Source of the DNA: a virus
Lineage: Duplodnaviria; Caudoviricetes
IMG/VR virus record: IMGVR_UViG_3300031998_000039
Span: 1-64,000 of that record
DNA length: 64,000 nucleotides
Direction: 5' to 3' (one strand)
Shown: piece after piece, positions 8,246-38,511 of the stretch
How positions within the stretch are numbered: the first letter of the stretch is position 1
Layout: each line of letters begins with the position of its first letter
Made by a program: the position numbers and the translations under genes
Notes under the pieces: model-generated
Told to the model about the DNA's origin: nothing
The model's input: the letters and a program-made list of their open reading frames with translations, nothing else
Database searches by the model: none

Positions 8246-8265
8246 ATTTTTATGATTCGTAAACC

Positions 8266-10308: not shown

Positions 10309-10320
10309 GGAGATAAAAAG

Positions 10321-10812: not shown

Positions 10813-10825
10813 GAAGGTGTACCGA

Positions 10826-11056
10826 ATGGGTGATGAGTTTTATAGATTAAGCACTGTAACAGGAAAGAAGTACGATATTTTTAAAACAGTAAAGATATTA
10901 AATATTAAACAGTGTATTTATTATATGCAGAATGGTTTCTTCCCAGTTGATATCAAAATAACAGAAACTGATAAAGGTGATAAGTGTTTAGTTTTTTATT
11001 ATAACAAAGAAGATACTAAAAAGATATATGAAGATTGGAAAAGCAGGAAGGGGTAA
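10826..11056 (+). CDS. Small hypothetical phage protein
   Basis: SD GGAAGG before ATG 10826 (shorter than the ORF-track call). Confidence 0.65.
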   Translation: MGDEFYRLSTVTGKKYDIFKTVKILNIKQCIYYMQNGFFPVDIKITETDKGDKCLVFYYNKEDTKKIYEDWKSRKG

Positions 11057-11058
11057 TT

Positions 11059-12144: not shown

Positions 12145-12148
12145 AAGG

Positions 12149-13249: not shown

Positions 13250-13752
13250 TGAATTTACTTATGCGTGAGGATAAGACAATTCGCCTCACAAATGCAGTAC
13301 CCGTATATCAATATGATACTTCGACAGATAAACTAAGAATATTAGTACCGCATTTTTGGGAGGAATATGACCTCACGGAATTTAATGCTGTTTTATCATA
13401 TATGTTACCCGATGGTACAATAGGTACAGAAACTCTTGTGCTTGATGAAGAACCGTATAACGAAGATTATATTTCGTATACTGTTGTGATAACTACAACA
13501 TATACTGCTATCCCCGGAACGGATTATTTGAAATTAGTTTTTGCTAAGGTTGGGCAAGATGATACAGCATATGTGTTAAGGTCGCAGTTGGGTAAATTGC
13601 CAATCCTTAGCGACAATGTTGTATCTGGCGAAATAGATCCCGGAGCAGTGGCAAGAATTGAATCTCAGATTGCTGACCTTGATTATAGGCTTAATGTTGC
13701 AGCAGCAGAAATATTGAATATTGATGATAACGGCTTAAAGATAGTTCTTTGA
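13246..13752 (+). CDS. BppU-like baseplate/fibre attachment protein
   Basis: YQYD..L...P..YDL.....LSY..PDG pattern; C-terminal coiled coil. Confidence 0.5.
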   Translation: MMNLLMREDKTIRLTNAVPVYQYDTSTDKLRILVPHFWEEYDLTEFNAVLSYMLPDGTIGTETLVLDEEPYNEDYISYTVVITTTYTAIPGTDYLKLVFAKVGQDDTAYVLRSQLGKLPILSDNVVSGEIDPGAVARIESQIADLDYRLNVAAAEILNIDDNGLKIVL

Positions 13753-13767
13753 AAGGTGGTGTTATAA

Positions 13768-14658
13768 GTGGCTGATAGAAACAAACCCGGTTATATGAAT
13801 TTCGCAGATATAGCCGATAGGCTTGAAAGCGGGAAATTAAATGCCTATGACACCGTATATACAAAGGATACACATGAAGTTGTATTTATTAAAGAGGACA
13901 AATCTTTGATAAGGATGAAATGTAGGCTTGATGTGTACTCAAGTGTTGTAATTGCCGAATATAATCTCAATCTCAATACTGATACTTATATCGGACAGAT
14001 TGTTGGTATTGAAGATGACGGATGGGTTCGGCTATATAACGTTAACTATGCAGATAATAGATTTTTTGTTAAAAGGGTTGGTATAGATAAATACGGACAG
14101 TTGGAAAACAAACCTCAGATTAACGGAGTAACACTTGAGGGAAATAAAACAACTGAACAGTTAGGTATTGATATACCGACAAAATTCTCGCAACTTTATG
14201 ATGATGTAGGATATGAAACTATAGACCATTTAATTGCGAATTATTATTCTAAAACACAGGTTGATGAAACCTTTGCAACCAAAAATGAAGTTCCTGATAT
14301 AGATGTTAATCCAGAACAGACCACACAAATCCTTACAAGCATTGGAATCAATGGTGTTAATTATACTTTCCGTGATAGCAATGGTATGATAATTAAAACC
14401 AAGGCTGAATGGGAACAATTAACTCACATGAGAAGTGTTGAAGGTGTTTGGTATGTTTATAGTGATTACAGGCAAGAAGAAGATCCGACAACTCATGTTA
14501 TTAAAAATATTCCAAGAGTAAAGATTGGTGACCATTATGGGACATATGTTGTAGACTTACCATTTACAACAGTATCGATAACGGATGCCGATATTGAAAA
14601 ATGGAATAATCATGTTGGTGTTACTGTAAATGGAACAAATTTAACATTCTTTCATTAA
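13768..14658 (+). CDS. Minor structural/fibre-associated protein
   Basis: YGQLENKPQINGVTLEGNKT, IPTKFSQL and KIGD..LPF motifs typical of fibre shafts. Confidence 0.6.
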   Translation: MADRNKPGYMNFADIADRLESGKLNAYDTVYTKDTHEVVFIKEDKSLIRMKCRLDVYSSVVIAEYNLNLNTDTYIGQIVGIEDDGWVRLYNVNYADNRFFVKRVGIDKYGQLENKPQINGVTLEGNKTTEQLGIDIPTKFSQLYDDVGYETIDHLIANYYSKTQVDETFATKNEVPDIDVNPEQTTQILTSIGINGVNYTFRDSNGMIIKTKAEWEQLTHMRSVEGVWYVYSDYRQEEDPTTHVIKNIPRVKIGDHYGTYVVDLPFTTVSITDADIEKWNNHVGVTVNGTNLTFFH

Positions 14659-24500: not shown

Positions 24501-27500
24501 TATTCTTAATGATTTTAAATCTCAGATTGATAAAATTAATACCGCCTATGAAAACCAGATTGCTCAGGAAAATGCAGAGGCGCAAAGCATCAGAGAAAGA
24601 GCCGAACATATTTTAAATGCAAAGATTTTAGGCTGGGATAACGGCAAACGGACGAGTACGCAATTTACTCATATGGGCGCCGAAATTGATACAAAGTCTG
24701 GATTTGCTATATTAAATTGGCATGTTCAGGAAATCAGAAAAGCTTTTGAGGATTTAAAGGTTGATACTTGGGAAGAAATTAATCTTTTTGATGATGTCAT
24801 TAAAGAAGCGGTTGACGCTGGAATGCGTGACATAAATGATTTGTTCGATTTGTATAAGAAAAGATTAAAAGAATTAAATACAGTCAAGACTGAAGTGTTT
24901 GATTATGCCGATTGGCTTAATAAAGATTCAGGTGTTAAAAATGGCGATACTGCATATTCAAATAATAATCTAATTACAGCTTATAAAAGTAGCATTGGTC
25001 AACTAACTGATTTTATTAAAAATAATAAAGAGGGACAGGTTGATGTAGACTTTGGTGATATTGTACGTATTACATCAAGTGATGAGCTTTTTAAAGCCTT
25101 AAATATGGACGGGTTTGATAAATATATCAAACAGTTTGGCGAAAGCTACATGGCGATTTTTGCTTATATTAACGATGCAGAGGAAAGTCTAACAAAGAGT
25201 CTTGATATGAACACAAGAGACAAGAATCTTTTATTAAAAACTCTTAATAATATTAAGACTGAGGCTCTTGGTGGCAGTAATAGTATTTATAAGCTTCGTG
25301 ATTCTTACATGGAATTACAGGGGGCAACTTCAACTCCAATTGGAGAGTCAATCAAAAAATTAAACCAAGAAGAAAAACTGACCTATCAGGAAATGCTTAA
25401 TATTATTAATAAGTATCCTGAATTAAAAGAAGCGGTTGTGCAATATTCAGACGGTACTTATAGCATTCAGAAAGAGAATATTGATAATTTAATTGAATCA
25501 TATGCAAATATGTCTAATGAATATATTTCATATATGACTGATATGTATAAGGCAACAATTCAATTGTCGTGGGCGCAACAGGGATTTAATAAAACCATTG
25601 ATGACGCACAAAAGATTTATCATGAAGCTCTTGAAAAACAAGTTCCACTTGATAATTTGTTTGGCGAAAATACTGGCAAAATTATTGAAGCTATAAAATT
25701 CCTTGAGGAGTTTGAATGGCTTGGTGAAAAAAATGAGCCTGATAACGCTACGTATTTAAATTATACTGAATGGCTTGGACGCAGCTCAAACCTTGTTAAA
25801 GATTCAAAGAGTGGAGAAAAATATCTTAATAACGAATTGATTTCTACATATCAATCTGCTATAGCTGATTTTAAGCAGTTCTTGGAAGAAAATGAACAAG
25901 GTGAAATTGAAATCAATCTTGGTAAAGTTGCAACCTATGTTGGCAATACCGAATTATTCAAACAGCTTGGCATGGACGCCTTTGAAACCTATGTTGAAGC
26001 GTTTACAGACGAATCAGGTAATATTGATAAAGCTAATTTGCTTGGTACATATATTAAAGATGTCTTTGCAAAAGCTATTCGTAGCGTAAGTTCAGAAGAA
26101 TTAACTGAAGAAGGTTATGCATTATTAACTCAGGCATTTGATAATATTAATTCTGAAATCTTTGGTGTATCAGAAAACGTATTTAAGATTGAAGAATCTT
26201 ATTGGGAACTTCGTAAATTACAAGAAGATGTAAACAAAGGTGTATCCTTTACTCAAGAAGAAGCCGAAGATTATATGAACAAATATGGCGAATTATATGG
26301 AGCCATAGAGTCTGTAACTAAGGAAATAGATAAGGAAACTGGCGAAATAATTAAGATGTATAAATTCCAAGAAGGCAGTATTGATTCTTTAGTTGGGAAA
26401 TATGCATCACTTTCTAATGAAGCCATTACATCACTTAAAGATCAAAGTAAGTATTTTACTGAAACCATAAAATATCTTCGACAGATGCAGATTGAACTTG
26501 TACAGGCAACTGTTGATGCGGCAATGTTAAGAGCAGGATTACCTTTTAATGTTGATTTAAAAGCAATGATGAATACCGATGCTAATCAAGCAGATATAGG
26601 TCGTGCCATTGCTGAATCAATGAAAGGCTTAGATGAAGAAACCCAAAAAAGTATAAATAGAATCATTAGTGAAGGACAACAGCGCGTATGGAATATTATG
26701 CATGGTTCCGAACTTGATTTAAAACAGGGTGATGGTTCTGCAACGGGTGCTGGTGGCGATAAGGACAAGGACAACAAATCCCAATACGACTGGCTCGACT
26801 CCTATCTTGATAAGCGTAACCGCGCCCTTCAAGAAGAACAGACTGCATATGATAGACTTACCAATCAAGTAATCAAAAAAGGCGATATCGAAACCGAGTA
26901 TAATAAACTTCAGAACGAATCTCTTTATGAACAGAATAAACTTCTTAACGACCAGATACTTGCATATAGTGAAGCCGAAAAAGAATACGGAAGACGTATG
27001 AATGAAGGCTTGTTATATGATAATTTGGTAGAAGCGTTTGGTAATGACAAGAGTAAGGCAGATGAGATTGTTCAAAAGATAATTAATCGTGAAGATATTG
27101 CTCTTGAAGAATACACTTCTGACCAAGCATCGGCAATCTCCGCAATGGCTGACAACTATAATAAACAGCTTGATGCGGCTGACAAGAAGCTTGAGGCTCA
27201 AAATACCAAGCGTGAAAACTTACTTAAGATGTTCACCAATAACATCGAGTTTATCACAAAGAAATTTGACCACGCTCTTAACGAGTTTGCTCAAAGACAG
27301 GCACAACTTGAGCATTATCAATCAATGCGTACTAATTCAGGTATGATGGAAAATCAGAAGTTATATCTTGCACTGCTTGATAACGAAAGTCGTGAACTTG
27401 AAGCTAATATACAAAAGCGTAATGAACTGATGAACACGCTCAATACACTGCAACCTTATACAGAAGCAGAAATTGAGGAATGGTGGAATACCAAAGAAGC

Positions 27501-29355
27501 AATTGACGCAACCACTCAGGCAATCTGGGAAAGTGAAGAAGCAATTGTTTCATACCAAAAGAGTATGCGTCAGCTTTCTTGGGATCTTAATGATAAGATA
27601 AGAGACATTACGGGTAATGTTCGTAATGAAACTTCGTTCTTAATTGATACGTTAGGCACGTTTGAGAAAGACATGTATTCTTATGAGAGAGATTTCTTAG
27701 GAAATGATGCAGAGAAGACAAAGATATATAACGGACAGATGTCTGACCAAGGTCTTGCTACTCTCGCACTCCGTAGGGTAAATGCCAAAGCTTATCGTGA
27801 AGATATCGAACGTATCAATAAAGAGATTGAAGACGCTCAAGAAGAATATCTGAAGAACACTGCCGATGTTGATGCTCTTGATAGGCTTAACAATTTGATT
27901 AGCGAAAGAAATAATCTTATCCAATCATATAACGATGAGCGAGAAGCTATATTAGCACTTGTTAAGGACGGATATGATAAGCAATTGCAGAGCCTGCAGG
28001 CAATTACAGATAAGTATATGGAAGCTAAACAAGCCGAAAAAGACTTATACGAGTATCAGAAGAATATTGCAAAGCAGACAAAGAATGTCGCAAACATTAG
28101 AAAGCAGATGCAGGCGTATGCCGGTGATATGTCTGAAGAAGCCCGTGCAAAGTTGCAAACTCTTAATGTCCAGCTTGAGGAAGCTGAAGAGGGACTTGCA
28201 GATACACAATATGATCGTCAATTACAAGACCAGCAACGCATCTTCGATCATCTCTATCAAAGCCTTGAAGATTTCTTCAATGATAAACTTGAACATCCTG
28301 AACAAATACTTAAGTCAACCGAAAAACTTGTTAATGACAACATGCCTAAGATTAAAGATACCTTGAATAATTCGTTGAGTTTCTACAAGACAAATATTTC
28401 AAAGAGTCTTGATAATATTTTAGGAGCAAATGGAATTGGTAAGATAGCAAGCAATATAGCTACAGTTGATGGTGATATAAAGGGTATTAAATCAAGTGTA
28501 AATTCTACTGGTGCAGATTTAAAGCATTATCTTGAAGAAAACAATCTGAAGAAACAAAAAGAAGAAACTATTTATGAAAGAATAGCTGATCTTTACAATG
28601 AAGATAATATGTTTGGTAAAAACTTTAGAAGTTTTAATACCAAACTTGACGAGATCAATGAATCTATTCAAGCTATTGATAAAGATAATAAAGAGGAAAA
28701 GAAAAAGAAAGAATCTGAAACAGAATCAGAAGCTACTACTACAACCACAACTTCCACTTTGAAAAACCAGACAACTGGACTTAATGGGATGAAATATGTT
28801 AGTGGCAAGTGGGAAGTTAATTTGTCAGAAGCTAAAGATGTTCTTGAAAGTTTAGGTCTTGAGGATTTCAAAGAATCACTTTATAGAGGTCACGTATATG
28901 ATTCATGGCTTGAATCACATCATATTGTTGTAGTAGATGATAGGCATAAGAAACGTGCAAAGGGCGCAAAGAAAATCTCAAGCAATGAACTTGCGTGGAC
29001 GCAGGAAAACGGTCTTGAAGCAATTCTTCGTCCTACCGATAATGCTATTCTTACACCTCTTAAAGCTGGCGATTCTGTACTTACAGCAGAAGCAACACAA
29101 ACACTTTGGGATTTTGCTAACAATCCTTTAGCGTTCATGAAACAGAATATGGGTATGACAACTGTATCTAAGAGTGCAGGAGTCACATTCAATAATTCTA
29201 TGTCACCCACGATTGTGGTTAATGGTGTATCAAATGCTAATGAGTTCATCCGTGAACTTCAGAAGAATAAGCAGTTTGAATCTATGATTCAAGATATGAC
29301 AATCAACCAGATGAATGGTGGCAATTCGTTAGCAAAGTTAAAATATAAGTTTTAA
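18517..29355 (+). CDS. Tape measure protein (3612 aa)
   Basis: Very long helical ORF; TMP core (VTELDSAL..LGNNYAISS..NALKVLSMRLRG..KSTYQILLEIS..LLEIMAGK); followed by Dit and Tal. Confidence 0.92.
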   Translation: MARKKNEAVIPITVEATGKGINEAMQEAEKLEKQTKKTKKQTKELKDSLAQTGDGAKQAAKGVQILDDQMKDFADNLKAVKEALEDIHKLLGEKGITFNTEKIQEQIGKLKTEFASLNTTINSAFKDDASTDNWIRRLTKVAGDIRNIRFRLFGDDKVPQETIKVKLASIDKDDNPVADIVNSLKEIKKFQIPLEPINQLLAKLNEISRVITDIMVGLRLDSKLPTAVIKDELTEVKTQLDAINKEANKYEKTLSRLTGITKNKNVDENGKETVTEIFHTNALVKTAKQVYTKDKPDQKDIQALEKEIIKLLQFGADLENVNVKVGKSATNYFQIVKSMFKNYSTSMMPQGSGGLKDYLSEFFDYAVSKDSANPSILLKNQKVYEETFAKTYKNLLKQKEYYTKQLSFAEARDATPSVIAYDEDTVKAMANALGNLGTNVTQTANQVSTVTQFSQEQLTQLVGGLSAIVEWLEKINTALGELGTKTDIFNNLPTFNINEQDQIDDLAQAVADKNKEYLKFLEQTNIVTNSILDSIKNITIAAKDLDLSDLFKNFTGTQPANGSANDLIQSLKDIQAAEKKVVIGKKKFSEQAEEIRNLAQAYAKYKALGGTESIADMTKKRGLASRVEQEYIKLASQSQDISIPVNIVPKLTDDFDAQLQKLIDLQSSDIDINIKPNISDVVNDFIKPIMVAVEGHPVEVEVAPIVDQFIKDIQAALTKSLDLSSIKELTASIENALKAEQIPVHLDPVIDDLISKIKSTLAKREFGIQLKPIVNNFIQNIKVALDKKQVPVNIKPVVGKEFNDELKKKLENKKPGVSITPNNISEFVKKLQSSLDKKVVKIKVEPILKDFIKRCKEILSGKYVPVNFKPQNPIHNNGKPFNNQEMQQLLDDETTNKSQKTTSMVNGHIVSGKVVTDDNGVKRTYTVDQFGNEKVTEQTVNKEKQIEKEYKEILSNYNQILQLKRQMKNQTEKEAEVTKQIISELTETTEAQYNALDKSGLSNNKTKKINHVQRMIQGVEVDNEYARQNAAMQYNALFKKVSNLINNPLLFRDQNNYDVFKNEFNNKGFELFNADESTTENIKKQTQALKALFATYEKSGNFTKLLRDYEDLNKFMSDNTALSGELKQRFQALLDEMKHFIDLGSIPPEVLKQLNDSMIKLRTEAKATGNVGDTFFTTFKKHLKSINAQFIAQYFSIQDWIRYIRSAVSAVTELDSALNQLKIISNETDMALQGIAKNAYSLANNLGMTTTEVISSVTEWRRLGKSMEDSMILAEQAARLSTGGMMDINAATTSLISSMEAFKLGADEVGKVVDQYIYLGNNYAISSEQLATSLTKSMAALKVAGNSLEEIEALEVAGNTMVQDSDVVSNALKVLSMRLRGTTGSALEEIGEDTEGLIENFSKLNNKIQALTKTVSNPAGVSIVDKMTGGYKSTYQILLEISKVWQDIGDMQKAELLEIMAGKVRATAAAAILERPDLLESVYEDAMKNASGAGERAVTISMESIEKKVNVLKNNLSQLSRDVIDSDSVKKLIDSLNELIQGIREAGQDLAPVMSGLMEILNLVVKIASIAPTGTLVGALFAKKKIFNSNSDLFSKLNFTKIFKSDLQVIEGAVEGTNTYAEACERLNDSMEELSPATQAFVRTQIATNESTQDVVKACKKQAVATKALSIAQGLLNTALSIGLSLLVSYVVQGISSLIHYEENARKKTREMLDELQASTDEYKKQSDALKDLITKYKEYNDTLQDNNLTESEIYSIKQDLYDLQEDINNQYGDTANGIDLVNGKYKETLGLLEEIEKQERDRYIAQNAGKYEEAQITASNRKFMDELMMSSAFSGWGLSIPTRIMSTLLQNYGFDLANGSAQEFKDVIDEIVSDYQDKTKLTPEMIANMAGLSEDRVDAIREMFDGLVVKWGEIVNNKESYLNEEIDASQIVKDYETYLTANNPAYSALYDVLSDYVKKLNSAQITGDKAEYQKLYKITEDYLKGASGIIPYESILNDFKSQIDKINTAYENQIAQENAEAQSIRERAEHILNAKILGWDNGKRTSTQFTHMGAEIDTKSGFAILNWHVQEIRKAFEDLKVDTWEEINLFDDVIKEAVDAGMRDINDLFDLYKKRLKELNTVKTEVFDYADWLNKDSGVKNGDTAYSNNNLITAYKSSIGQLTDFIKNNKEGQVDVDFGDIVRITSSDELFKALNMDGFDKYIKQFGESYMAIFAYINDAEESLTKSLDMNTRDKNLLLKTLNNIKTEALGGSNSIYKLRDSYMELQGATSTPIGESIKKLNQEEKLTYQEMLNIINKYPELKEAVVQYSDGTYSIQKENIDNLIESYANMSNEYISYMTDMYKATIQLSWAQQGFNKTIDDAQKIYHEALEKQVPLDNLFGENTGKIIEAIKFLEEFEWLGEKNEPDNATYLNYTEWLGRSSNLVKDSKSGEKYLNNELISTYQSAIADFKQFLEENEQGEIEINLGKVATYVGNTELFKQLGMDAFETYVEAFTDESGNIDKANLLGTYIKDVFAKAIRSVSSEELTEEGYALLTQAFDNINSEIFGVSENVFKIEESYWELRKLQEDVNKGVSFTQEEAEDYMNKYGELYGAIESVTKEIDKETGEIIKMYKFQEGSIDSLVGKYASLSNEAITSLKDQSKYFTETIKYLRQMQIELVQATVDAAMLRAGLPFNVDLKAMMNTDANQADIGRAIAESMKGLDEETQKSINRIISEGQQRVWNIMHGSELDLKQGDGSATGAGGDKDKDNKSQYDWLDSYLDKRNRALQEEQTAYDRLTNQVIKKGDIETEYNKLQNESLYEQNKLLNDQILAYSEAEKEYGRRMNEGLLYDNLVEAFGNDKSKADEIVQKIINREDIALEEYTSDQASAISAMADNYNKQLDAADKKLEAQNTKRENLLKMFTNNIEFITKKFDHALNEFAQRQAQLEHYQSMRTNSGMMENQKLYLALLDNESRELEANIQKRNELMNTLNTLQPYTEAEIEEWWNTKEAIDATTQAIWESEEAIVSYQKSMRQLSWDLNDKIRDITGNVRNETSFLIDTLGTFEKDMYSYERDFLGNDAEKTKIYNGQMSDQGLATLALRRVNAKAYREDIERINKEIEDAQEEYLKNTADVDALDRLNNLISERNNLIQSYNDEREAILALVKDGYDKQLQSLQAITDKYMEAKQAEKDLYEYQKNIAKQTKNVANIRKQMQAYAGDMSEEARAKLQTLNVQLEEAEEGLADTQYDRQLQDQQRIFDHLYQSLEDFFNDKLEHPEQILKSTEKLVNDNMPKIKDTLNNSLSFYKTNISKSLDNILGANGIGKIASNIATVDGDIKGIKSSVNSTGADLKHYLEENNLKKQKEETIYERIADLYNEDNMFGKNFRSFNTKLDEINESIQAIDKDNKEEKKKKESETESEATTTTTTSTLKNQTTGLNGMKYVSGKWEVNLSEAKDVLESLGLEDFKESLYRGHVYDSWLESHHIVVVDDRHKKRAKGAKKISSNELAWTQENGLEAILRPTDNAILTPLKAGDSVLTAEATQTLWDFANNPLAFMKQNMGMTTVSKSAGVTFNNSMSPTIVVNGVSNANEFIRELQKNKQFESMIQDMTINQMNGGNSLAKLKYKF

Positions 29356-29717: not shown

Positions 29718-30518
29718 ATGTACGCAAAAGATTTTACTTATGATGGTGCAACATTAAGTTCAAAAGGGTATATTTTGTGTGAGTTTGGTAATGGCAGTGA
29801 TACACAGGCGGGATCTAAGATATCATTCTCGACAGTGCCTGTTGATAAGGGGCAGAAGTTTTTAATGGCTGATGCCAAGTATGAAGAGTGCCTTACTACT
29901 ACCCTACACATTTGTAAGGATATGTGTAATATAAGCGACCAAGAGAACTTAAAACTCTCTCCTGCCGATGTGTCAGCATTGTCACGTTGGCTGAATAAAA
30001 AGGCGTTTAAGTCAATGGTGTTTGATGCAACAGGGTGGACAGATATCATATTTGAAGCCAGTTTTAATGTGTCAACTGTAGAGATTGGCGGGGAGATATA
30101 TGGGCTTGAATTAGAGATGGTAACGAATAGACCGTTTGCTACCAAGGCGTTGACGACAAAAACAATGACATTTGCTGCGGGTTCATTAAGCCAAAGCCTA
30201 TTAGACGATTCAGATGAGATTGGATATATTTATCCTGACTCTTATAAAATCACAATGGGTTCGGCAGGAAACCTTACTATCGCTACAGCGATAGAGGGTA
30301 GGGAAACCAAAATAGCTAACTGTTCTAATAACGAGATTATCACTATTACCTATCCTACTATCTCATCTAATGTCGTTGCTCATGCTATACAGGATGATTT
30401 CAATTATGTATTCCCAAGGGTTGCAAATAGTGCATCTGTAAGGACGGATACTATAACAACAAATCTTCCCTGTACTATAGAAGTGAAGTATAAACCGATT
30501 GTAAAAGTCACACTGTGA
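29718..30518 (+). CDS. Distal tail protein (Dit)
   Basis: DFTYDG..LS..G N-terminus, RWL, NRPFA; position after TMP. Confidence 0.75.
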   Translation: MYAKDFTYDGATLSSKGYILCEFGNGSDTQAGSKISFSTVPVDKGQKFLMADAKYEECLTTTLHICKDMCNISDQENLKLSPADVSALSRWLNKKAFKSMVFDATGWTDIIFEASFNVSTVEIGGEIYGLELEMVTNRPFATKALTTKTMTFAAGSLSQSLLDDSDEIGYIYPDSYKITMGSAGNLTIATAIEGRETKIANCSNNEIITITYPTISSNVVAHAIQDDFNYVFPRVANSASVRTDTITTNLPCTIEVKYKPIVKVTL

Positions 30519-30529: not shown

Positions 30530-33500
30530 ATGATAGATATTAATATTAATTTTGGGGCAGACGGATTGGCGGAAAATCTAACATTTGTGCTTGCTCGTAA
30601 AGATAAATCCAAGATAGGTTTATTGAGTAATCCGCAAGATGTTGACGCAACCATAAGTCTTGAAGAAGCTCCAAGTATATCAGTTAAATTTTATAACGTT
30701 GAAAATCCTTACTGGAATGATATTAATATGTTCAAGCTGATATATGTGCCGGAACTTGATACATATTATTCCATTGAATGCGAAGAGAGTGAGGGTGATG
30801 GTGGCTCTTATAAAGCACTGACACTTACCCGTATGGCTGAATCAGAACTTGAACAGCCTAAAGTCTATGGGCTTCAGATAAACACCGAGGAAGATATTAT
30901 CAGAGAAGACTATGATTCTAACTTCCCCAATGTTTTATATCGTGATCCTGAAGACATTCATGCATACGATGATATATGGAACTCTGATGAGAAGTATGAG
31001 GATTATACTGATGCACAAAAGAGTGCGGTGTTACGTAACTCTTCTATTATGCATAGGGTATTAAGTTATGCTCCGCATTTTACCATTGGAAATGTTGACG
31101 AAAGTATACAGAATATTCAACGAATCTACACATTTGATGGTACTAGTGTGTATGAATGCTTAAATCAGATTGCCGAAGACATGTCGATAATATTTGATTA
31201 TGATGACAGAACGGTCAACGCTTATGACGCATTAAGCTATTGCGAAGACTGTGGGTTTCGTGGCCACTACACAGGTGAATGCCCTAACTGTGGTGGTACA
31301 AATGTTATTGAGGGCTTTGGCGACAATACTGGCATATGTATCAGTACTGAAGCCCTAGGAACTGATATTACATATACAAGGAATAGCGATGCAATCTGCA
31401 ACTGTTATCATATCGCTGGCGGTGATGATACAATGACCGCAGCTATCTGGAACTGTAACCCTAATGGTGGATATGTATGGAGTTTTTCAGACGAGATGAA
31501 GAACGAAATGAGTCCTACGTTAAGGGTTGCCCTTAACACATATGAAACATTGTATGACACATATCAGAATAGCTATTCATTTGATATTTCGGGGCTTCCT
31601 ATTTCAGATTATAATACGTTGATTAATAAATATAAGGCGTTAGATAGCGATGTCAAGGTTGATACCATTTCTTCAATCACTGGCTATTCAGAATTGATTA
31701 AGGCATATTATGACGCAATTGATTTTGGCGAATATCTGAACGCTGGGTTGTATCCGTCAATCACAAATAACGGCAAGACTGCGGCTCAGGTTGCTGCGAA
31801 TTTAACCAATACTACGATGGCAAGGGTATCATTAATGTCAACGGATGTTCTGACATTATCAAGTGCGTCTACTGCCGTTGTATCATATGCAAAAATAATA
31901 TCAGATCCTTTATTTGAAATAAAAGTTGTTTCGCAGGAACTGATCACGCTCTTGGGCGGATTTGCTTGGGAAGGTGTGTTGTCCGTAACGAATTATTATA
32001 ACAAAGATGACAATGCTAAAACAACCAGACTGCATGTTATTATTGATTCGGATATTGAAAACTATGCACAGAATAGCGTTATGCAGACGTTGTTAAATAG
32101 AAGTAAGGGTAATGCTGAAATTATCAATATGTATAATATGACCGATTTGGAGTTAGCTAATGCACTCAAATATTATTCATATCAATCCTTGTCTTCTATT
32201 AATGATTGCTATGTCAAGTCGGTTGAAACGCTGACAAGTATCGGAGCAAATGATCCGAACAGTGACGCTTATCAGATATTCCAGACAACACAGGCAAAGC
32301 TTGTAATCATAACCGCAGAGTTGGGAGTAAGGGAGCAGGAAGTAAAGCTGGTTGATTTTAAAGATTCAACAACCTGTATGACATATTTGCTTAAGTCCAT
32401 GATAGATGCAGCAAAGCAGACTATGAAGATAGAGAATAATCTTACTTCTGCTCAATGGATAGAACTTAACGCATTCAGACGTGAATCTGATTTCACAAAT
32501 GATAATTATGTATCAACTTCGTTTAGGAAGAAGTTTGATTATATTGATAGCCAGTTTATATCTGACTCGTTGTCTAATGCTGAACTGATTAAACGTGCTT
32601 ATGAATTTCTTATGCAAGCTGAATATAAGCTTAAGGAGAATAATAAGTATAGCTATCAGATAAGCACGACATTACAGAACCTGCTCACCATACCTGAGTT
32701 TGCTGGACTTAAGGATTCGTTTAAATGCGGTAACTGGTTAAGAGTAATGGATGGCAATGGTCAGCTTTATAAGTTAAGGCTTATGAAGTATGAGGTTGAC
32801 TTCAGCGATCTTTCCAAGATATCTGTAGAGTTTTCTGATGTGTCGCAGAACGCATCTTCTGTAACTAAAATGCAGAAGTTTATGATGAAGACTCAGGACG
32901 TTGTTGATAGATTTAATAAGAGCAACAATCAGAATCAGAGCAAATTTATCGGTCAGAATAATGATATAACAGATGATTATAATTATAGCGATGCATATAC
33001 TGGTGGCGAAAGCAATCAGAACATTGAGATAATGAATAATCAGGTGACCACCAAATTCCAAGTCCTTGACGGATTGATACAAAGTATTATCAGTATAGAT
33101 GATGAAGAAGTTCGTTCAATCATCTCTCAAGAGTTAGATAAGATTACGCTGAGTGTTAATAACTATGATGAATATAGTACGATTACTATCAGTTATGATG
33201 GCGTTTCTATTATGACATCAAATGATATCACGCTTGGTGGCGAGGTTATCTTTACGAGTGATCTGACGGACGGAACTACAGTTATCAGTGGTGATAATAT
33301 CTTAACGGGTATTATCCAATCAATCAATTATCTCAAAAATCCGGGGGAAGACTTTTCAGTAAGAGGTACATCTATTAATTTAACTACAGGCGAGATAATC
33401 ACACCCTCTGTTTATATTGAGGGGCAACCTGATGGTGGTGAAGCACGTAAAGCGAAGTTCAAAGATGTATATATGGAAAGCGGTTATATCGGTGGCGTTC

Positions 33501-34273
33501 CAATCATTACTGAAGACGATGGTGGATTAGTAACGCTAGACCATGCAAGCAACGCTTGGAAACTGCGTACTGCCGAAATGGATGAACATGGTACTCGTTA
33601 TTATACTTATATGACGAAAAACAAAAACCTTATCGTTACCAATACAGAACGTGGTGGACATAGTGACGATAATGATGTAACAGACCAAAGTAATATAGGT
33701 TCATATAAATATCCTTGGAATAAGGGATACTTCAATATGTTAAGGGTACAACATCATAATGTTCTGCCCGAAGGACTTGATTTAACGCTTGAGGTATCTG
33801 GTTGGTCACAACATGCAAGCGGTTACTATACACAAACCATTAATGTTAATGGTATGTCTGGTGATATTTATCTTTATATTGCGACTAAAGACGCAACAAA
33901 TTTGGATTTAGTTTATAAATATAATATCGAAGTTGATAATATTGCAAATAATACTGTAACGTTCCTTGCTTCTACATTACCTTCAACTGATATCGATATA
34001 GTTTTATTGGTTGAGGATTTTATTTATTCAGCTATGATTCCTGCCGAATTAACTGGTAGTTATGACGCTGGAACAAATAGATTGTCATGTTGGTGGGCGA
34101 GTCCTCGTGACAGCAGTAAATTTATTACATGGATAAAAGACGAATTGGTTATTGAAAAACTCAATGAAGATACTCAACAATGGGAACAGGTTTTGGTGGT
34201 TCCGGGGCAAGGAGAAACTCCTTTCCAACCTGATGAATTTTCTGATGTTCCTTTGATAATAGGGAGTGCATGA
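30530..34273 (+). CDS. Tail-tip hub/Tal-like protein with zinc ribbon, coiled coils and a partial C-terminal Fn3-like domain
   Basis: Position after Dit; CEDC..CPNC; G..LRV..KLRL..YEVDF..ISVEFSD hub motif. Confidence 0.75.
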   Translation: MIDININFGADGLAENLTFVLARKDKSKIGLLSNPQDVDATISLEEAPSISVKFYNVENPYWNDINMFKLIYVPELDTYYSIECEESEGDGGSYKALTLTRMAESELEQPKVYGLQINTEEDIIREDYDSNFPNVLYRDPEDIHAYDDIWNSDEKYEDYTDAQKSAVLRNSSIMHRVLSYAPHFTIGNVDESIQNIQRIYTFDGTSVYECLNQIAEDMSIIFDYDDRTVNAYDALSYCEDCGFRGHYTGECPNCGGTNVIEGFGDNTGICISTEALGTDITYTRNSDAICNCYHIAGGDDTMTAAIWNCNPNGGYVWSFSDEMKNEMSPTLRVALNTYETLYDTYQNSYSFDISGLPISDYNTLINKYKALDSDVKVDTISSITGYSELIKAYYDAIDFGEYLNAGLYPSITNNGKTAAQVAANLTNTTMARVSLMSTDVLTLSSASTAVVSYAKIISDPLFEIKVVSQELITLLGGFAWEGVLSVTNYYNKDDNAKTTRLHVIIDSDIENYAQNSVMQTLLNRSKGNAEIINMYNMTDLELANALKYYSYQSLSSINDCYVKSVETLTSIGANDPNSDAYQIFQTTQAKLVIITAELGVREQEVKLVDFKDSTTCMTYLLKSMIDAAKQTMKIENNLTSAQWIELNAFRRESDFTNDNYVSTSFRKKFDYIDSQFISDSLSNAELIKRAYEFLMQAEYKLKENNKYSYQISTTLQNLLTIPEFAGLKDSFKCGNWLRVMDGNGQLYKLRLMKYEVDFSDLSKISVEFSDVSQNASSVTKMQKFMMKTQDVVDRFNKSNNQNQSKFIGQNNDITDDYNYSDAYTGGESNQNIEIMNNQVTTKFQVLDGLIQSIISIDDEEVRSIISQELDKITLSVNNYDEYSTITISYDGVSIMTSNDITLGGEVIFTSDLTDGTTVISGDNILTGIIQSINYLKNPGEDFSVRGTSINLTTGEIITPSVYIEGQPDGGEARKAKFKDVYMESGYIGGVPIITEDDGGLVTLDHASNAWKLRTAEMDEHGTRYYTYMTKNKNLIVTNTERGGHSDDNDVTDQSNIGSYKYPWNKGYFNMLRVQHHNVLPEGLDLTLEVSGWSQHASGYYTQTINVNGMSGDIYLYIATKDATNLDLVYKYNIEVDNIANNTVTFLASTLPSTDIDIVLLVEDFIYSAMIPAELTGSYDAGTNRLSCWWASPRDSSKFITWIKDELVIEKLNEDTQQWEQVLVVPGQGETPFQPDEFSDVPLIIGSA

Positions 34274-34274
34274 T

Positions 34275-34745
34275 ATGGTAGAATATAACTTTACTAGCGG
34301 ACGCTATCGGGCAAAGGTTAAGACAACCTATAAGCGTGAAGATATGTCTATGAACGATTACGTAGTTAGCGATCCATATGAGTTTACTTCGGCTGGACAT
34401 CCTGCACCGCCCGAACCATCGGTTGAGAAAAAGAATTTAATCTATTGTCAATGGTCAAGTAGCAGTGTAACGTTTAGGGCAACTGTCGGACAAGAATATG
34501 AATTTGTATATCAAAGTAATACATATGACGATTGCTATTATCCGTTCGCATTTTGGGCAGCTCCAAACAGCCTTATTATTGTCGGTGGCGATTTGGATAA
34601 TTATGGTGTAAGTTATATTAGTAATAATGCTAGTTTATATAGCGGGGCGCCTGAAACGGTGCATCAGCTAGAGCCAGCTACTTGTCCTATATTTGAAAGC
34701 TTTAATCAAAACTGCCTAACTTGGGCTAGGCAAGGATATCTGTAA
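34275..34745 (+). CDS. Tail-tip accessory protein (N-terminal Fn3-like fragment plus variable domain)
   Basis: SD AGGGAG; GRYRAKVKTTY..SDPYEF N-terminus, Pro linker. Confidence 0.65.
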   Translation: MVEYNFTSGRYRAKVKTTYKREDMSMNDYVVSDPYEFTSAGHPAPPEPSVEKKNLIYCQWSSSSVTFRATVGQEYEFVYQSNTYDDCYYPFAFWAAPNSLIIVGGDLDNYGVSYISNNASLYSGAPETVHQLEPATCPIFESFNQNCLTWARQGYL

Positions 34746-34758
34746 GGAGGGTGAATAT

Positions 34759-36021
34759 ATGCCTGTTCATACTGTATATACCTTTTTGCCCGGTCAGTAT
34801 CGTGCATATGTTCGCACTACTTACCAGAACGGATTGATGCAAGAAGGTACAGTAATAAGTAATAAATATCCATTTAATAATAATGGATTGGCACTCATTA
34901 GTGTAACACAAGGTTTACCAGCGCATTGGAATGGTTCAAAGGTAGCTATTTTATGGTCTGGTGATTATAACGCACTGACAGTTGAAATGGATGATGACAG
35001 TATCTTATTTAGAATGTATATAAATGATACGCAGATTTATTCTTTTACTTCTCCTGTTGGTACTACTGTTGATGATATAGATAAAATATACATCGGATTT
35101 CTTTGGGATATAGGTAACCAAGTCGCAAAGCCATCGTTTGTTTATGACACTGGCAGTGACACTTATGCATATAATCAGGAAGAGCCTACGAATTCCGAAA
35201 TGGCTGCAATCTTCTCATGGTTGTCACTTGGAGCAACGACACGCTATGACTTTGATTATACAGGATCGATACAGACATTTACCGCACCTGAGACAGGCAC
35301 TTACTTGCTTGAAACTTGGGGCGCACAAGGTGGCAATGCTACTGATGGTATAAATACTGCCCGTGGTGGTTATGGTGCTTATGCAAAGGGTGAAGTATCA
35401 TTGACACAAGGCGATGTGCTGTATATCGGTGTTGGTGGTCAGAACGGATATAATGGTGGTGGAATGCTAACAAGATGGATACGAAGAATTATATTTAATG
35501 GAACAGTAAAAAATCTTGGTTCATGTACAGAAGATTATCCAATACCTTCAAAATTAATTAATGCTACTAATCCTGATAGAACAAGAAGTGGCGAGCAAGG
35601 ATATATCAGAGGTGCTTCTGATTTACCAACGGGTGTTAGTATTGGTGATATTTTATTTAAAGAGGATAATGTAACTGATACCTATACTTTTATGGATGAT
35701 AATAATTTTAAGATTGTTTTTGGTGTATATCAAAAGACACAAGGCACAAATAGATATGGATTAGGTATTTATTGTAAGAGAAATTCTACTTGGCTTTATG
35801 ATGCTAATATAGGAGATAATATAGCACCATCTGATACACATTATGAACAATATTATTTTAATATCTATATTGATGAAGCAAATCAGAGAGCTTATCTTGT
35901 AATTATATCATGGTTGACAGGGCATCCATATGAAGGAAATGGTTGGACAATCGTGATGCTTGGTGGAAAATATAATGGGACAGATATATTCTATGAATCA
36001 TTTCATAATTTAGATATTTAA
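34759..36021 (+). CDS. Tail-tip protein: Fn3-like fragment, N-half of a glycine-rich domain, variable C-terminal domain
   Basis: GQYRAYVRTTY..SNKYPF; FDYTGSIQTFTAPETGTYLLETWGAQGG..GGYGAY..LYIGVGGQ..YNGGG. Confidence 0.7.
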   Translation: MPVHTVYTFLPGQYRAYVRTTYQNGLMQEGTVISNKYPFNNNGLALISVTQGLPAHWNGSKVAILWSGDYNALTVEMDDDSILFRMYINDTQIYSFTSPVGTTVDDIDKIYIGFLWDIGNQVAKPSFVYDTGSDTYAYNQEEPTNSEMAAIFSWLSLGATTRYDFDYTGSIQTFTAPETGTYLLETWGAQGGNATDGINTARGGYGAYAKGEVSLTQGDVLYIGVGGQNGYNGGGMLTRWIRRIIFNGTVKNLGSCTEDYPIPSKLINATNPDRTRSGEQGYIRGASDLPTGVSIGDILFKEDNVTDTYTFMDDNNFKIVFGVYQKTQGTNRYGLGIYCKRNSTWLYDANIGDNIAPSDTHYEQYYFNIYIDEANQRAYLVIISWLTGHPYEGNGWTIVMLGGKYNGTDIFYESFHNLDI

Positions 36022-36081: not shown

Positions 36082-37071
36082 GTGGCAACAGAAACAGATT
36101 ATGCGATATTTCAACCAGATTTGTCTTATCAGATAGATATATATGATGAAGGTAATAGAGCATTTCGAGGTACCTATACAATTTCTGAGTTATTATCTTT
36201 GTTGCAACAAATACCAAGTTGCGAAGATTGTGATAGCGTGTTGATAGCAAAAGGTACAAATATTCAGCAGGGATATAGTATTTTTACACCATTAAAAATT
36301 GGTAGTAGAACGTCTTATTATGTTGGAGATAACAGTTTATATGAACCTGCCGGAAACAGGCAATATGTATTATGGCAATATGATAACGGAATATATGACG
36401 GGAAATATTATGGCTTTTATAATAGTACTTCTTTAAGTTCTGTTAATTCAAACTATTCAAGAGAAACTATTGATGGAATTGAGTATTATTGGGATTATTG
36501 GCCGCAAAATAATAGTTACAAACCAATACTATATATTACCTCATCGGTTGATCGTGTTGTTATTAATTCGCATCCTGAAATTTCTAACGGTGGCGGAGCA
36601 ACCCACATAGCTACACGCACAGGCACTCTTATGAGCATAGGTTCATCTAACTTATCAGATGTGCTTATAGTGTCTGGTGGTGGCGGTGGTGGTGTACTTG
36701 TTGGAGAAACCGCTAATGGTGGTGCTGACGCAGGTGGAATAAGCGGAAATGGAACATTATCAGCAGACCAGACTACTGGTTACGGCTTTGGACAGGGTGA
36801 AAGCGGTGCAGATGTAAGTAGTGGTGGTGGCGGATTATATGGTGGCTACAAAGGTACAAGTGCTTTAAGCGGTGGTGCTGGCAGTGGCTATATAGGCAAC
36901 TCTGATTTGTCTAACAAAAAGATGGTTGGATATGATGTTCCCACTTCAAGTTCAACAAGCACCAAAACAGAAAGTGTCAACGATGCCTCAGCAACTCCTA
37001 TATCGGGTAAACCTAAGATTGGCAATGGGTTTGTGAGGATTACACTGCTCAGTGCCAGCACGGTAGAATAA
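36082..37071 (+). CDS. Tail-tip protein: variable N-terminal domain plus C-half of a glycine-rich domain
   Basis: GTG start with SD GGAGG; NGGGATHIA..LIVSGGGGG..GFGQG..GGGGLYGG..GGAGSGYIG..GNGFVRIT. Confidence 0.7.
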   Translation: MATETDYAIFQPDLSYQIDIYDEGNRAFRGTYTISELLSLLQQIPSCEDCDSVLIAKGTNIQQGYSIFTPLKIGSRTSYYVGDNSLYEPAGNRQYVLWQYDNGIYDGKYYGFYNSTSLSSVNSNYSRETIDGIEYYWDYWPQNNSYKPILYITSSVDRVVINSHPEISNGGGATHIATRTGTLMSIGSSNLSDVLIVSGGGGGGVLVGETANGGADAGGISGNGTLSADQTTGYGFGQGESGADVSSGGGGLYGGYKGTSALSGGAGSGYIGNSDLSNKKMVGYDVPTSSSTSTKTESVNDASATPISGKPKIGNGFVRITLLSASTVE

Positions 37072-37097: not shown

Positions 37098-38003
37098 ATG
37101 GCTGAAAATTTGGTTTGGTCTGGTACAAATTATAATGGAATTGATTATAAGCTTGTTACGGACGGTAATTTAAATGATATATTAATTGATAATGGAGAAT
37201 ATTTTATTATACCTAGTGAACCCGGAATACCAGATATTTATAATAGTGCTATTTATAATGGTGGATCTGGTGTTGGTTGGAGAGGTGTAATTATTACAAA
37301 AACTCCAATGACTTTTAGACAATACTATTATTGGGGTGGTAGCTGGCGTGAAGAAACAAGTTATGTATTTAATTGTACAAGACAAAACAATACAGCATAT
37401 GAACGTGATAATAGAAATGTAGTTACTGGTTTTAATATATATGAAAATTTTGGTATAGGTACGAATGGGACTACTACTTATAGTTATTTACCTCAATTTA
37501 ATGAAGGTGAAGAGTCTACATTTAGGTCATATGTAAGCACTCCTGTGTCATCTACTTATAACTGGGTTTCCGTCTCCACTATAACTGGCAAAAACGGAAC
37601 GTTCGCACTGTCAACCATAAATAGTTCATACATTAACAATGGCGATCCAGTGACGGGCGCAACCATAAGCAACTTTGATGCATTAGAAGAAGAAACCAAC
37701 GTAGGCACACTTGTTAACGACTCGTCTATAGATGAGACAAAGGTTGTTGTCAGATATAATATTCCTCAAGGAACGTATCTATATACAAAGCTGGTATACA
37801 AACTAAACTCCGAGCCAGAAACTATTTCGGACGGAGTGGCTATTGACCTTAACCAAGTAGACTCCCAGTATGTTATAGATAGCATTATTACTGCGGGAAC
37901 ATATTACTTTAAGATATTTACAAACGTTGGCAATAGCAATACTGTAGTGCTTAATTATGTCGGCATTGTACCGATTATTATTAATATAGAAAGGGTGTGG
38001 TAA
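37098..38003 (+). CDS. Tail-tip protein with variable domain and Fn3-like domain
   Basis: YTKLVYK..P....DG..TYYFKIFT repeat. Confidence 0.65.
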   Translation: MAENLVWSGTNYNGIDYKLVTDGNLNDILIDNGEYFIIPSEPGIPDIYNSAIYNGGSGVGWRGVIITKTPMTFRQYYYWGGSWREETSYVFNCTRQNNTAYERDNRNVVTGFNIYENFGIGTNGTTTYSYLPQFNEGEESTFRSYVSTPVSSTYNWVSVSTITGKNGTFALSTINSSYINNGDPVTGATISNFDALEEETNVGTLVNDSSIDETKVVVRYNIPQGTYLYTKLVYKLNSEPETISDGVAIDLNQVDSQYVIDSIITAGTYYFKIFTNVGNSNTVVLNYVGIVPIIINIERVW

Positions 38004-38004: not shown

Positions 38005-38511
38005 ATGTCTTCAACTGCAGCGAATGTCAGGGTGACATTTATAGTACCACCCGGAGATTATGATTATATTAAATTGGTTTATAAGGCAAATGCTGTTCCC
38101 GCTTCTTATAATGACGGAACTGCGATTGATATCTTACAATCAGAAACCGAGCATATGGTTTATGATCTTAGTGAGGGTATAACATATTACTTCGTAATAT
38201 TCACATCTAAAGCGGCAAGTACGCCAGTGCCTTATAGAGCAAGCAGTATTATTGTTTTGCCCGCCGAGCGTATTATTGTTGAAAAACAAGTTGATGAAGA
38301 AAGCGAAGAGTTTGTATTAATTGACGATTGGACGTATAAGTGGACGATTAGTGAGTCAACATCTGTCAATGCGTATGGGTTGGTACTGGAAACTACAGAT
38401 TCTATTGTAACCGAAACATACGATTATGATATGAGAGAAAATATTGACAATACTGAAACTAACTTTACCCAAGAGTCAGTTAGTTATGAACAGATTACTG
38501 AGGAGGAATAA
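38005..38511 (+). CDS. Fn3-like tail-tip protein with acidic tail
   Basis: YIKLVYK..P....DG..LSEGITYYFVIFT, paralogous to the previous gene. Confidence 0.65.
   Translation: MSSTAANVRVTFIVPPGDYDYIKLVYKANAVPASYNDGTAIDILQSETEHMVYDLSEGITYYFVIFTSKAASTPVPYRASSIIVLPAERIIVEKQVDEESEEFVLIDDWTYKWTISESTSVNAYGLVLETTDSIVTETYDYDMRENIDNTETNFTQESVSYEQITEEE

Follow-up and report, generated by a model that had tools for sequence, protein, structure and literature searches.

A predicted beta-sandwich domain divided between the tail hub and the genes behind it is the likely joint that holds exchangeable tip proteins on the tail of an uncultured phage

Only for a few cultured phages is it known how siphophage tail tips hold their exchangeable receptor-binding proteins (RBPs). 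In RBP anchor modules, such as those of the Klebsiella phage anchor-branch systems (PMC13579863) and of BppU on Dit in TP901-1, a conserved N-terminus docks and a variable C-terminus gives specificity. In chaperone–usher and type V pili, an incomplete Ig-like fold is filled by the N-terminal extension of the next subunit, forming a very stable non-covalent joint; one strand (G) is missing from the pilins, and a periplasmic chaperone or proteolysis is needed. In the literature on strand complementation and augmentation in phage tails, we failed to find a direct precedent for the arrangement described below. The nearest case is the baseplate tripod of the Lactococcus phage Tuc2009, where the C-terminal beta-hairpin of BppU completes domain 2 of BppA (Legrand et al. 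2016, mBio; PMC4742702), yielding a composite domain similar to a titin domain of the Ig/Fn3 type (Z 5.9; PMC4742702). In RcGTA, according to a paper on the T5 tail (bioRxiv 10.1101/2022.09.20.507954), the baseplate hub is split into Hub (gp13) and Megatron (gp15), each giving part of one insertion domain.

We analyzed a window of 64,000 nucleotides from the 98.8-kb genome of an uncultured long-tailed phage. With a probability of about two-thirds, one Fn3-like beta-sandwich is encoded there in two pieces and completed in trans, fixing tip proteins to the tail hub. Most likely, this split domain is what attaches exchangeable tip proteins to the tail; the support for this is computational throughout. 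The C-terminal half-domain of the hub and the N-terminal segment of its partners are referred to below as the socket and the plug, respectively.

The tape measure gene (TMP; 18517–29355, 3612 aa) was followed by a 109-aa ORF, a DUF6558 Dit-like gene (29718–30518), and a Tal-like tail hub gene (30530–34273, plus strand, 1247 aa), the last being recognized from its ORF and synteny; the same gene order is kept in relatives. The hub gene thus lies after the tape measure and Dit, in the position typical of Tal and baseplate-hub genes. Neither the hub nor the product of the next gene, gpA, had a match in Pfam and PHROG scans; among the families without a Pfam or PHROG match were the gp27-like ones (PF06605, Prophage_tail), and a PDB sequence search revealed no sequence relative of the hub. 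Atlas feature neighbours of the hub included YOMG_N and Prophage_tail clusters (0.92–0.95), which are leads only. Sixteen hub homologues with 100–38% identity were found, only in metagenome contigs and protein collections; the hub alignment yielded no relatives in viral_contigs and genome_contigs. A tblastn search of 50,697 phage records returned one uncultured fecal phage, with 31% identity over the N-terminal 771 aa and a hub that bears its fibre in cis and lacks both socket and plug, and neither a cultured relative nor a host.

A complete Ig-like beta domain (33761–34030, plus strand; hub residues 1078–1167) precedes the end of the hub. When the hub end was folded alone with AF2, this domain was predicted to consist of six strands and one helix, with block pLDDT values of 65–90. 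It is directly followed by the socket (34031–34270, plus strand; residues 1168–1247), an incomplete Fn3-like half-domain of ~80 residues, which has Fn3 hallmarks and too low a number of strands. The socket carries the motif L-x-C-x-W-x-x-P-x-D-x-S-x-F-x-x-W and ends with PLIIGSA and the stop codon TGA (34271–34273). According to the models, its strands are A, B (L-x-C-x-W-x-x-P), C (WIKDELVIEK), C' (WEQVLVV), and a short terminal PLIIG. Columns L1185, C1187, W1189, P1192, D1194, S1196, F1198, W1201, E1209, W1218, P1241, and G1245 are invariant. All 16 homologues, down to 38% identity, end at the same place (PL[IV]IG and another 2–15 residues), and the same end point was found in more distant socket carriers (loci L010 and L011). 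This agrees with the sequence-only reading, which had proposed that the hub terminates in an incomplete domain. Moreover, the Tal C-terminus was not seen to fold completely alone: the half-domain reached pLDDT values of 32–58 in the same AF2 model, below those of the preceding Ig-like domain. In the whole 98.8-kb genome, the socket HMM matched the hub as its sole target (E 6e-43; next best 1.0).

The ATG of gpA (34275–34745, plus strand; stop codon TAA, 34743–34745) is located one base after the hub stop codon, and gpB (34759–36021, plus strand) comes next. As claimed from the sequence alone, each of the two genes has its own Shine–Dalgarno sequence: GGGAG within the last codons of the hub for gpA (34262–34266, plus strand) and AAGGAGG, overlapping the TAA of gpA, for gpB (34744–34750, plus strand), both read from the sequence and situated 8 nt before the respective ATG. 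The presence of an own Shine–Dalgarno sequence and start codon points to independent translation of each plug gene. Plug A comprises gpA residues 1–42 (34275–34400, plus strand) with the pattern Y-x-F-x-x-G-x-Y-R-A-x-V-K-T-T-Y ... S-x-x-Y-E-F; plug B, paralogous to it, comprises gpB residues 1–44 (34759–34890, plus strand). The two N-termini are identical at 16 of 38 positions (BLASTP, E 6e-5) and the remainder of both proteins is unalignable, confirming that paralogous beginnings lead into unrelated sequence. Seven plug residues—Y3, F5, G8, Y10, R11, S31, and F36—are invariant, and all of them are kept in plug B. The plug HMM found gpA (E 5e-26) and gpB (E 1e-21) only in the whole 98.8-kb genome, with the next best match at 0.9; the specificity of the plug and socket profiles in this genome is far beyond chance.

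Behind the plug, gpA carries a cargo (34401–34745, plus strand) that starts with a Pro-rich linker, HPAPPEPS, and goes on to a C-terminal module of ~110 aa containing Cys. The module had no family match in Pfam and PHROG and no usable match in an Atlas search; an unrelated protein of 529 aa ends with it too, again after a similar Pro-rich linker. The gpB cargo (34891–36021, plus strand) includes a ~110-aa conserved domain (residues 45–155), the initial portion of a glycine-rich domain (residues 162–235), and a C-terminal region of 185 aa. Residues 6–155 of gpB are common to the proteins P0029, P0037, and P0019. In the glycine-rich domain, residues 178–235 correspond to positions 6–61 of PF12810 (ALK_LTK_GRD; E 4.8e-10) and residues 162–235 to positions 4–73 of phrog_7388. 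This glycine-rich domain looks split between gpB and the 329-aa protein of the next gene (36082–37071), and a third split is possibly present at 38003/38005.

At the DNA level, the two plug copies, lying on the same strand, share 68 of 121 nucleotides (56%); their conservation is therefore at the protein level. Invertible or cassette recombination between the copies was ruled out by the common strand and the low DNA identity. It is very unlikely that the N-terminal 40 residues serve mainly a purpose other than docking, either as a boundary for recombination and cassette exchange or as a signal for an assembly chaperone. The similarity among plug proteins does end sharply at residue ~40–50, the pattern expected at a mosaic boundary; however, the identity between the copies is too low for homologous exchange, and no chaperone candidate was identified. 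Such a role would also be compatible with docking rather than alternative to it.

Searching the plug profile against 1.84e9 (1.84 billion) representative proteins resulted in 40 matches, from which four spurious tandem-repeat proteins (P0017, P0036, P0047, and P0052) were dropped, leaving 36 genuine clusters. In about 30 of these, the plug was found at residues 1–8 of proteins of 72–879 aa, followed by unrelated sequence; it was internal, after a Pro-rich linker, in 3 of the 36 clusters, and two plugs per chain occurred in 3. Some plug proteins bear BspA-type LRR and glycine-rich domains. A PDB search with the plug profile gave nothing meaningful, the best hits being chance matches to fluorescent proteins (E ~0.5). 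Fused homologues, which the earlier reading had suggested looking for, did not turn up: no chain with both socket and plug was found in the hub homologue and plug profile searches of protein collections.

The plug gene adjoins the socket in 12 of the 13 loci read. It directly follows the socket in the window and in L003, L004, and L006–L011, and lies just upstream of it in L012/L013; in L001 and L005, the gene after the hub carries the plug internally. In L002, the socket was present and no plug gene was detected in the 2 kb before the contig end. Two plug genes were found in the window, L007, L008, and L010. The spacer downstream of the hub in L001 and L005 contains a T-arm-like stretch, but ARAGORN identified no tRNA there. 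Relative to the hub, the plug gene is in the +1 frame in the window and L007; L003 and L010 have it in frame. It overlaps the hub by 4 nt (ATGA) in L004 and L008 and by 8 nt in L006, L009, and L011; coupling overlaps of the ATGA type occur in several relatives. These data bear on the idea that programmed recoding (+1 frameshift or stop read-through) makes a single polypeptide of the hub and gpA, with the domain complete in cis and the split only apparent. The idea draws on the 1-nt distance between the hub stop and the next ATG in the window, on the SD-like GGGAG just upstream of the stop, loosely resembling the prfB +1 site, and on the in-frame plug genes of L003 and L010. We regard it as extremely improbable, since the plug frame varies among relatives and neither a slippery site nor the geometry is conserved. 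Judging from the sequence, the P-site codon GCA that precedes TGA is unable to re-pair in +1. Moreover, gpB, the second plug gene, comes after gpA and not after the hub, and recoding could not fuse to the hub those plugs that are internal, behind Pro-rich linkers, in L001 and L005. A +1 frameshift fusion, for which the sequence-only reading had proposed a check, is in particular made unlikely by the occurrence of all three relative frames among the relatives.

The split might also be a relic in decay: a nonsense or frameshift mutation would have interrupted a Tal extension that was once continuous, leaving downstream ORFs unattached or non-functional. The related hub of MT835469 (2361 aa) carries a whole fibre in cis, with a chaperone-like C-end and neither socket nor plug, and other domains of the tail-tip cluster also look broken across genes. 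However, the cut is kept in every homologue and in the more distant carriers, the seven plug residues are invariant across lineages while the DNA of the plug copies has drifted apart to the level given above, every copy has a start codon and a Shine–Dalgarno sequence, and at least 30 different protein clusters begin with the plug, which makes a relic highly improbable.

Docking by completion of the hub domain in trans, as put forward by the sequence-only reading, was supported by structure prediction. Co-folding of the hub end with the gpA plug gave an ipSAE of 0.64 (runs 0.69, 0.64, and 0.61) versus 0.00 for the best of three controls, which included unrelated partners and an unrelated receptor. 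Among 80 solved complexes, 58 attained this mark, as did 2 of 110 mismatched pairs, these counts being rough here because own alignments were used. The pLDDT of the partner was at least 73, and the agreement of contacts between runs was at least 91%. Hub residues 1202–1210 are predicted to run antiparallel to plug residues 9–18, corresponding to the canonical C–F pairing of Fn3; in the complex model, the hub interface is formed by residues 1168–1176, 1183–1191, 1198–1211, 1218–1224, and 1242–1247. Because no solved sequence relative exists, it is unlikely that the co-fold reproduces a structure already known to the program. Thus, a failure of the N-termini to complement the hub was not seen: the gpA plug is predicted to complement it. 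The co-fold used the gpA plug only, and gpB probably docks in the same manner, judging by its homology.

The composite fold was also modelled for locus L003, where a natural in-frame read-through chain (socket, stop and four codons, plug; P0057) had a mean pLDDT of 69.9 and a pTM of 0.65; this chain represents the pair of a 38%-identity relative, not the window's own, and the alignments were shallow (9–19 rows). Residues ~11–132 of the L003 model, including both halves, aligned to whole Fn3 domains with Z of 7.7–8.9 and rmsd of 2.7–3.2 over 91–97 residues, although Z of ~8 is common among beta sandwiches and the fold matches are middling. Among the matches were NCAM FN3 (96/96 residues, rmsd 3.0), integrin beta4 FnIII (91/91 residues, rmsd 2.7), and the Fn3 domain of lambda gpJ. 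The best Foldseek matches of the composite model were Fn3 domains as well (E 2e-3). Even with E values of up to 10 admitted, the Pfam fn3 family (PF00041) matched neither the hub half nor the plug nor the read-through chain P0057, and whole hub, gpA, and gpB were likewise without a match to it. The core hallmarks of Fn3, Trp followed by Pro in strand B and Tyr in strand F, are present: the invariant residues include W1189 and P1192 of the hub half and Y10 in the long strand of the plug, their assignment to strands B and F, respectively, resting on the models and the established Fn3 consensus. Regarding the strand count given by the sequence-only reading, the division of the domain into two halves held, whereas the assignment of A–E to the hub and F–G to the downstream genes did not: the models give the hub the strands listed above and the plug three.

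It is rather unlikely that the plug is an N-terminal anchor that docks otherwise, as a three-stranded (possibly trimeric) module of its own or by binding Dit or another hub surface, with the hub end being a self-sufficient "half-Fn3" of a trimeric Tal extension. For streptococcal phages, predictions have yielded three-strand "3-beta" modules, near half an Fn3, standing alone within trimeric Tal extensions (PMC9437275); co-folding programs pair beta strands readily, and the middling fold-match scores fit this possibility too. Against it stand the gap between the real pair and the controls, the canonical register of the predicted pairing, and the low confidence of the hub end folded alone. Furthermore, the socket always closes its chain at the C-terminus, and the plug either opens its own or comes after a flexible linker, the arrangement expected of one domain cut at a loop.

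If the domain is completed in trans, the extreme C-terminus of the hub would supply strands A, B, C, C', and the short PL[IV]I strand, and each of the two next genes would supply the remainder at its N-terminus, namely a short Y-x-F strand, a long Tyr-bearing F, and G. The proteins would be translated separately first; the plug would then insert into the open sandwich, its F strand pairing antiparallel with the C strand of the hub and closing the hydrophobic core. This would secure the tip protein at the distal end of the tail. With the plug as a portable module of ~40 residues, behind which a linker and any cargo can come, the phages of this group could swap or add tip proteins, likely adhesins, leaving the hub untouched. 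On the socket side, the hub offers a single type of socket, in three copies if it forms a trimer, to two different plug proteins; we infer a hub trimer with three sockets, which gpA and gpB would both occupy, and cargos that would bind the host. For the putative receptor-binding role, the sole basis is the BspA-type LRR and glycine-rich domains mentioned above.

A broader reading is possible, though doubtful: socket and plug might constitute a portable docking code of general use, and the tail tip might contain several trans-completed joints of which this is only one. A socket at the C-end of a hub or an adaptor would then capture any plug-bearing protein, whether its plug is N-terminal, internal behind a Pro-rich linker, or present twice per chain, and the three sockets of one hub could hold mixed cargos. 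The adhesion device would, in daisy-chain fashion, consist of separately made proteins joined by shared domains. If this is true, the pair would represent a natural non-covalent "tag and catcher" for phage retargeting.

Trans-completion itself, involving a socket of ~80 residues and a plug of ~40, would explain attachment in a group of uncultured phages of ~100–140 kb. It would provide an annotation rule for tail-tip proteins without a family match, by which a protein starting with a plug is a tip protein, as well as a compact split-domain tag of natural origin with which cargos could be attached to phage tails.

RBP anchor modules resemble the plug in that N-terminal docking and a variable C-terminus allow modular exchange; however, they are self-folded domains or short peptides on the surface of a complete partner, whereas the anchor is predicted here to be part of the partner's fold. 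With pili, the analogy is one of principle only, and there is no homology: about three of seven or eight strands would be donated here, no chaperone is evident, Pfam and PHROG scans having shown no chaperone or usher family near these phage tail genes, and the joint would tie the hub to cargos and build no polymer. RcGTA shares a siphovirus-type hub domain spread over two polypeptides; its split lies within the conserved hub core and not at a distal docking site for exchangeable proteins. The siphophage adhesion device of Tuc2009 has been solved: strands from one baseplate protein complete a beta-sheet in a small sandwich domain of another, and the joint attaches an accessory carbohydrate-binding protein, although no match to the BppU/BppA family was found in the hub, gpA, gpB, and their neighbours (Pfam, PHROG). 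Its composite sandwich is solved, while the one described here is predicted by two programs. In our phage, a three-strand N-terminal plug on the cargo would complete a C-terminal half-domain of the hub itself, and the plug is a portable tag on at least 30 unrelated proteins, with two plug genes for one socket type. A composite Ig-like baseplate domain is already known from Tuc2009, the single solved example; what would be new is the hub-centred, multi-cargo variant, to which that example would be extended if our reading is true.

The contig containing the window was 98.8 kb in length with a GC content of 34.7% and was phage-like; the identical hub protein was also recorded on a 127-kb contig in the protein collection. 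The tail module, delineated by ORFs and gene order, lay on the plus strand and comprised a tape measure protein of 3612 aa (18517–29355), a 109-aa ORF, a DUF6558 Dit-like protein (29718–30518) and a 1247-aa protein (30530–34273), which is the Tal or tail hub by gene position; 3' of it came a row of ORFs of small to medium size, none with a family name. The hub had no sequence match in Pfam, PHROG or PDB; its Atlas neighbours included YOMG_N and Prophage_tail, which are leads only. A four-Cys zinc-ribbon-like insertion (C-x2-C ... C-x2-C) was present in its N-terminal part (residues ~240–265, window ~31250–31330) and was kept in the homologue consensus. The tape measure proteins were very long (3928 and 4307 aa in relatives); tail length follows a rule of ~1.5 Å per tape measure residue, and the tails should therefore measure roughly 0.5–0.65 micrometre.

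The final ~80 residues of the hub contained the motif L-x-C-x-W-x-x-P-x-D-x-S-x-F-x-x-W (nt 34031–34270), followed by two more beta-like stretches and the C-terminal PLIIGSA; we call this incomplete half-domain the socket. The gene for gpA (156 aa, 34275–34745, plus strand) started one base past the hub TGA, with GGGAG 8 nt upstream, and that for gpB (420 aa, 34759–36021, plus strand) started 13 nt past the gpA TAA, with AAGGAGG 8 nt upstream. The first ~40 residues of the two proteins, the plug, were identical at 16 of 38 positions (E 6e-5), and the remainder did not align. Over the complete genome, HMMs made from relatives detected two plugs and a single socket and no others, the next match being more than 20 orders of magnitude worse. 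Thus, the ORFs, Shine–Dalgarno sequences, alignment and HMM matches bear out the sequence-only reading of a hub ending in half a domain and two downstream genes beginning with the missing half.

The cut was conserved. All 16 hub homologues (900–2031 aa; 100% to 38% identity over the final 248 residues) ended at the same column, with PL[IV]IG plus 2–15 mostly acidic residues. Among loci with readable DNA, a plug headed the gene right after the hub in L003, L004, L006, L007, L008 and L009, and L007 and L008 had a second plug gene, like the window. Two loci were reached from the plug side, via distant plug proteins: L010 encoded a hub of 1351 aa whose C-terminal socket had a long C–C' insertion, with two plug genes behind it, and L011 encoded a 551-aa protein with a C-terminal socket. 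In L012 (1438–2085) and L013, a 215-aa non-hub protein had a socket-like half-domain (HMM domain E 7e-12) as its C-terminus, with a plug gene just upstream and, in L012, a fibre-like gene downstream; sockets hence occur on small adaptor proteins as well. The sole exception was L002, where a socket was present and no plug was found within 2 kb up to the contig end. Compared with its relative L003, ~3 kb was absent there, including the holin; the plug gene and beta-helix gene found 3' of the L003 hub were lacking too. L002 may have arisen by deletion or through faulty assembly. Its 2031-aa hub (8001–14096) also appears to span the separate 817-aa, 81-aa and 900-aa products of L003 (4861–10703).

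Decay of a formerly continuous gene does not fit this conservation, nor the seven plug residues that were invariant across lineages while the DNA of the two window copies was down to 56% identical. Recoding, joining the hub and plug gene product into one chain, would suit the in-frame arrangement of L003 and L010 but is unlikely: the plug gene was in the +1 frame in the window and L007, overlapped the hub gene by ATGA in L004 and L008 and by 8 nt in L006, L009 and L011, each plug copy had its own start, and recoding from the hub cannot reach gpB or plugs lying inside a protein.

An uncut hub was also observed. In the human-gut phage L014 (MT835469.1, 8932–16014), the N-terminal 771 residues of the hub were 31% identical to the window hub, and the protein, which lacked both socket and plug, ran on in cis to 2361 aa; the split arrangement thus has a natural "fused fibre" counterpart. 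Its C-terminal end contained a helical region that may recall an intramolecular chaperone.

Docking of the plug on the hub end, as the sequence-only reading had proposed, was also predicted structurally. Hub residues 1078–1247 with the gpA plug gave an ipSAE of 0.64 (runs of 0.69, 0.64 and 0.61), whereas the best of three controls scored 0.00; 58 of 80 solved complexes attain the pass mark, as do 2 of 110 mismatched pairs, counts that hold only roughly because author-built alignments were used. The runs had at least 91% of contacts in common, with a partner pLDDT of at least 73. Since neither chain has a sequence relative in PDB, the score is unlikely to reflect a memorised structure. The lowest-error contacts formed an antiparallel ladder of hub residues 1210, 1207, 1205 and 1203 with plug residues 10, 13, 15 and 17; in the model this is the hub C strand against the long Tyr-bearing strand of the plug, the C–F pairing of an Fn3 sandwich. 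The interface also took in the hub A strand, alternate B residues, C' and terminal residues 1242–1247. With AF2, the hub end alone gave a pLDDT of 65–90 for the preceding Ig-like domain and 32–58 for the half-domain, which argues against a C-terminus folding completely by itself.

In L003, where the plug gene was in frame with the hub stop, the natural sequence was read through with TAA as Q (table 6) and folded as a single chain, using an alignment of separate hub-end and plug rows. The resulting model had nine strands, a mean pLDDT of 69.9 (63–70 in all five models) and a pTM of 0.65, and matched whole Fn3 domains across both halves with Z of 7.7–8.9, including NCAM FN3 module 2 (96/96 residues), integrin beta4 FnIII (91/91) and lambda gpJ Fn3; the top Foldseek matches were also Fn3 domains, albeit weak (E 2e-3). 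Pfam fn3 gave no match by sequence. On these results the predicted domain is named Fn3-like. We place the cut between the short terminal strand of the hub and a short strand that opens the plug. The plug, originally read as an F–G-like hairpin, would supply the F and G strands but not as a hairpin alone, three strands being predicted. A different docking geometry seems improbable to us, even though the scores for the trans-completed fold come from predictions and other Tal extensions have been proposed to contain half-Fn3 modules that stand by themselves (PMC9437275).

The plug is an N-terminal module and is portable between proteins. With a 45-column profile, a search of 1.84 billion representative proteins (E up to 1e-3) gave 40 matches, four of which were tandem-repeat artefacts; in about 30 of the 36 genuine matches, in proteins of 72–879 aa, the plug was located at residues 1–8. 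BLAST of gpA against plug proteins aligned only residues 1 to ~40–50 (82% over 1–39 for a 202-aa protein), and the sequence behind the plug was unrelated. An internal plug at approximately residue 197, directly after a Pro-rich linker, was found in three clusters and in loci L001 and L005; three clusters contained a pair of plugs each, apparently through fusion of adjacent plug genes. We failed to find fused homologues, with no socket half ahead of a plug in one chain among the genuine plug proteins, and a search for longer gpA relatives returned only a 529-aa protein with the gpA C-terminal module and no hub fusion. Named domains behind the plug were BspA-type LRR/DUF285 (three proteins) and, in gpB, a glycine-rich domain; these would fit adhesins without being proof of them. 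Where the plug was internal, a spacer of ~100–140 nt lay 3' of the hub stop (L001 11745–11840, L005 10997–11130); that of L001 contained a tRNA T-arm-like stretch, GGGGTTCAAATCCCCAC, in which ARAGORN called no tRNA.

Other domains of the tail-tip cluster were apparently split as well. The glycine-rich domain (PF12810/phrog_7388) was divided between gpB residues 162–235 (35242–35463, profile positions 4–73) and residues 168–325 of the next, 329-aa protein (36583–37056, profile positions 90–219), with ~350 unrelated residues between the parts; in L001 (14185–15690), the later part was divided again between proteins of 259 and 236 aa. The C-terminal end of a 301-aa protein (37743–38000) and the N-terminal end of a 168-aa protein (38026–38274), encoded 1 nt apart, were Fn3-like repeats paralogous to each other (38% identity over 85 residues, E 6e-14); protein P0058 carried the same repeat ahead of the gpA C-module.

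Exchangeable receptor-binding proteins with conserved N-terminal anchors are commonplace; the anchor-branch systems of Klebsiella phages (PMC13579863) are an example. The closest verified solved case is the Tuc2009 tripod, in which BppU ends in a hairpin of 25 residues that "completes one of the beta-sheets" in domain 2 of BppA, the composite domain being titin domain-like (PMC4742702). In RcGTA, one domain is common to the hub and megatron, as described in a paper on the T5 tail (bioRxiv 10.1101/2022.09.20.507954). The arrangement in this phage differs from the known systems in polarity and position, with the socket on the hub C-terminus and the plug on the N-terminus of the cargo, in the predicted donation of about three strands, in the use of the plug as a tag spread over many unrelated proteins, and in having two plug genes for one socket type.
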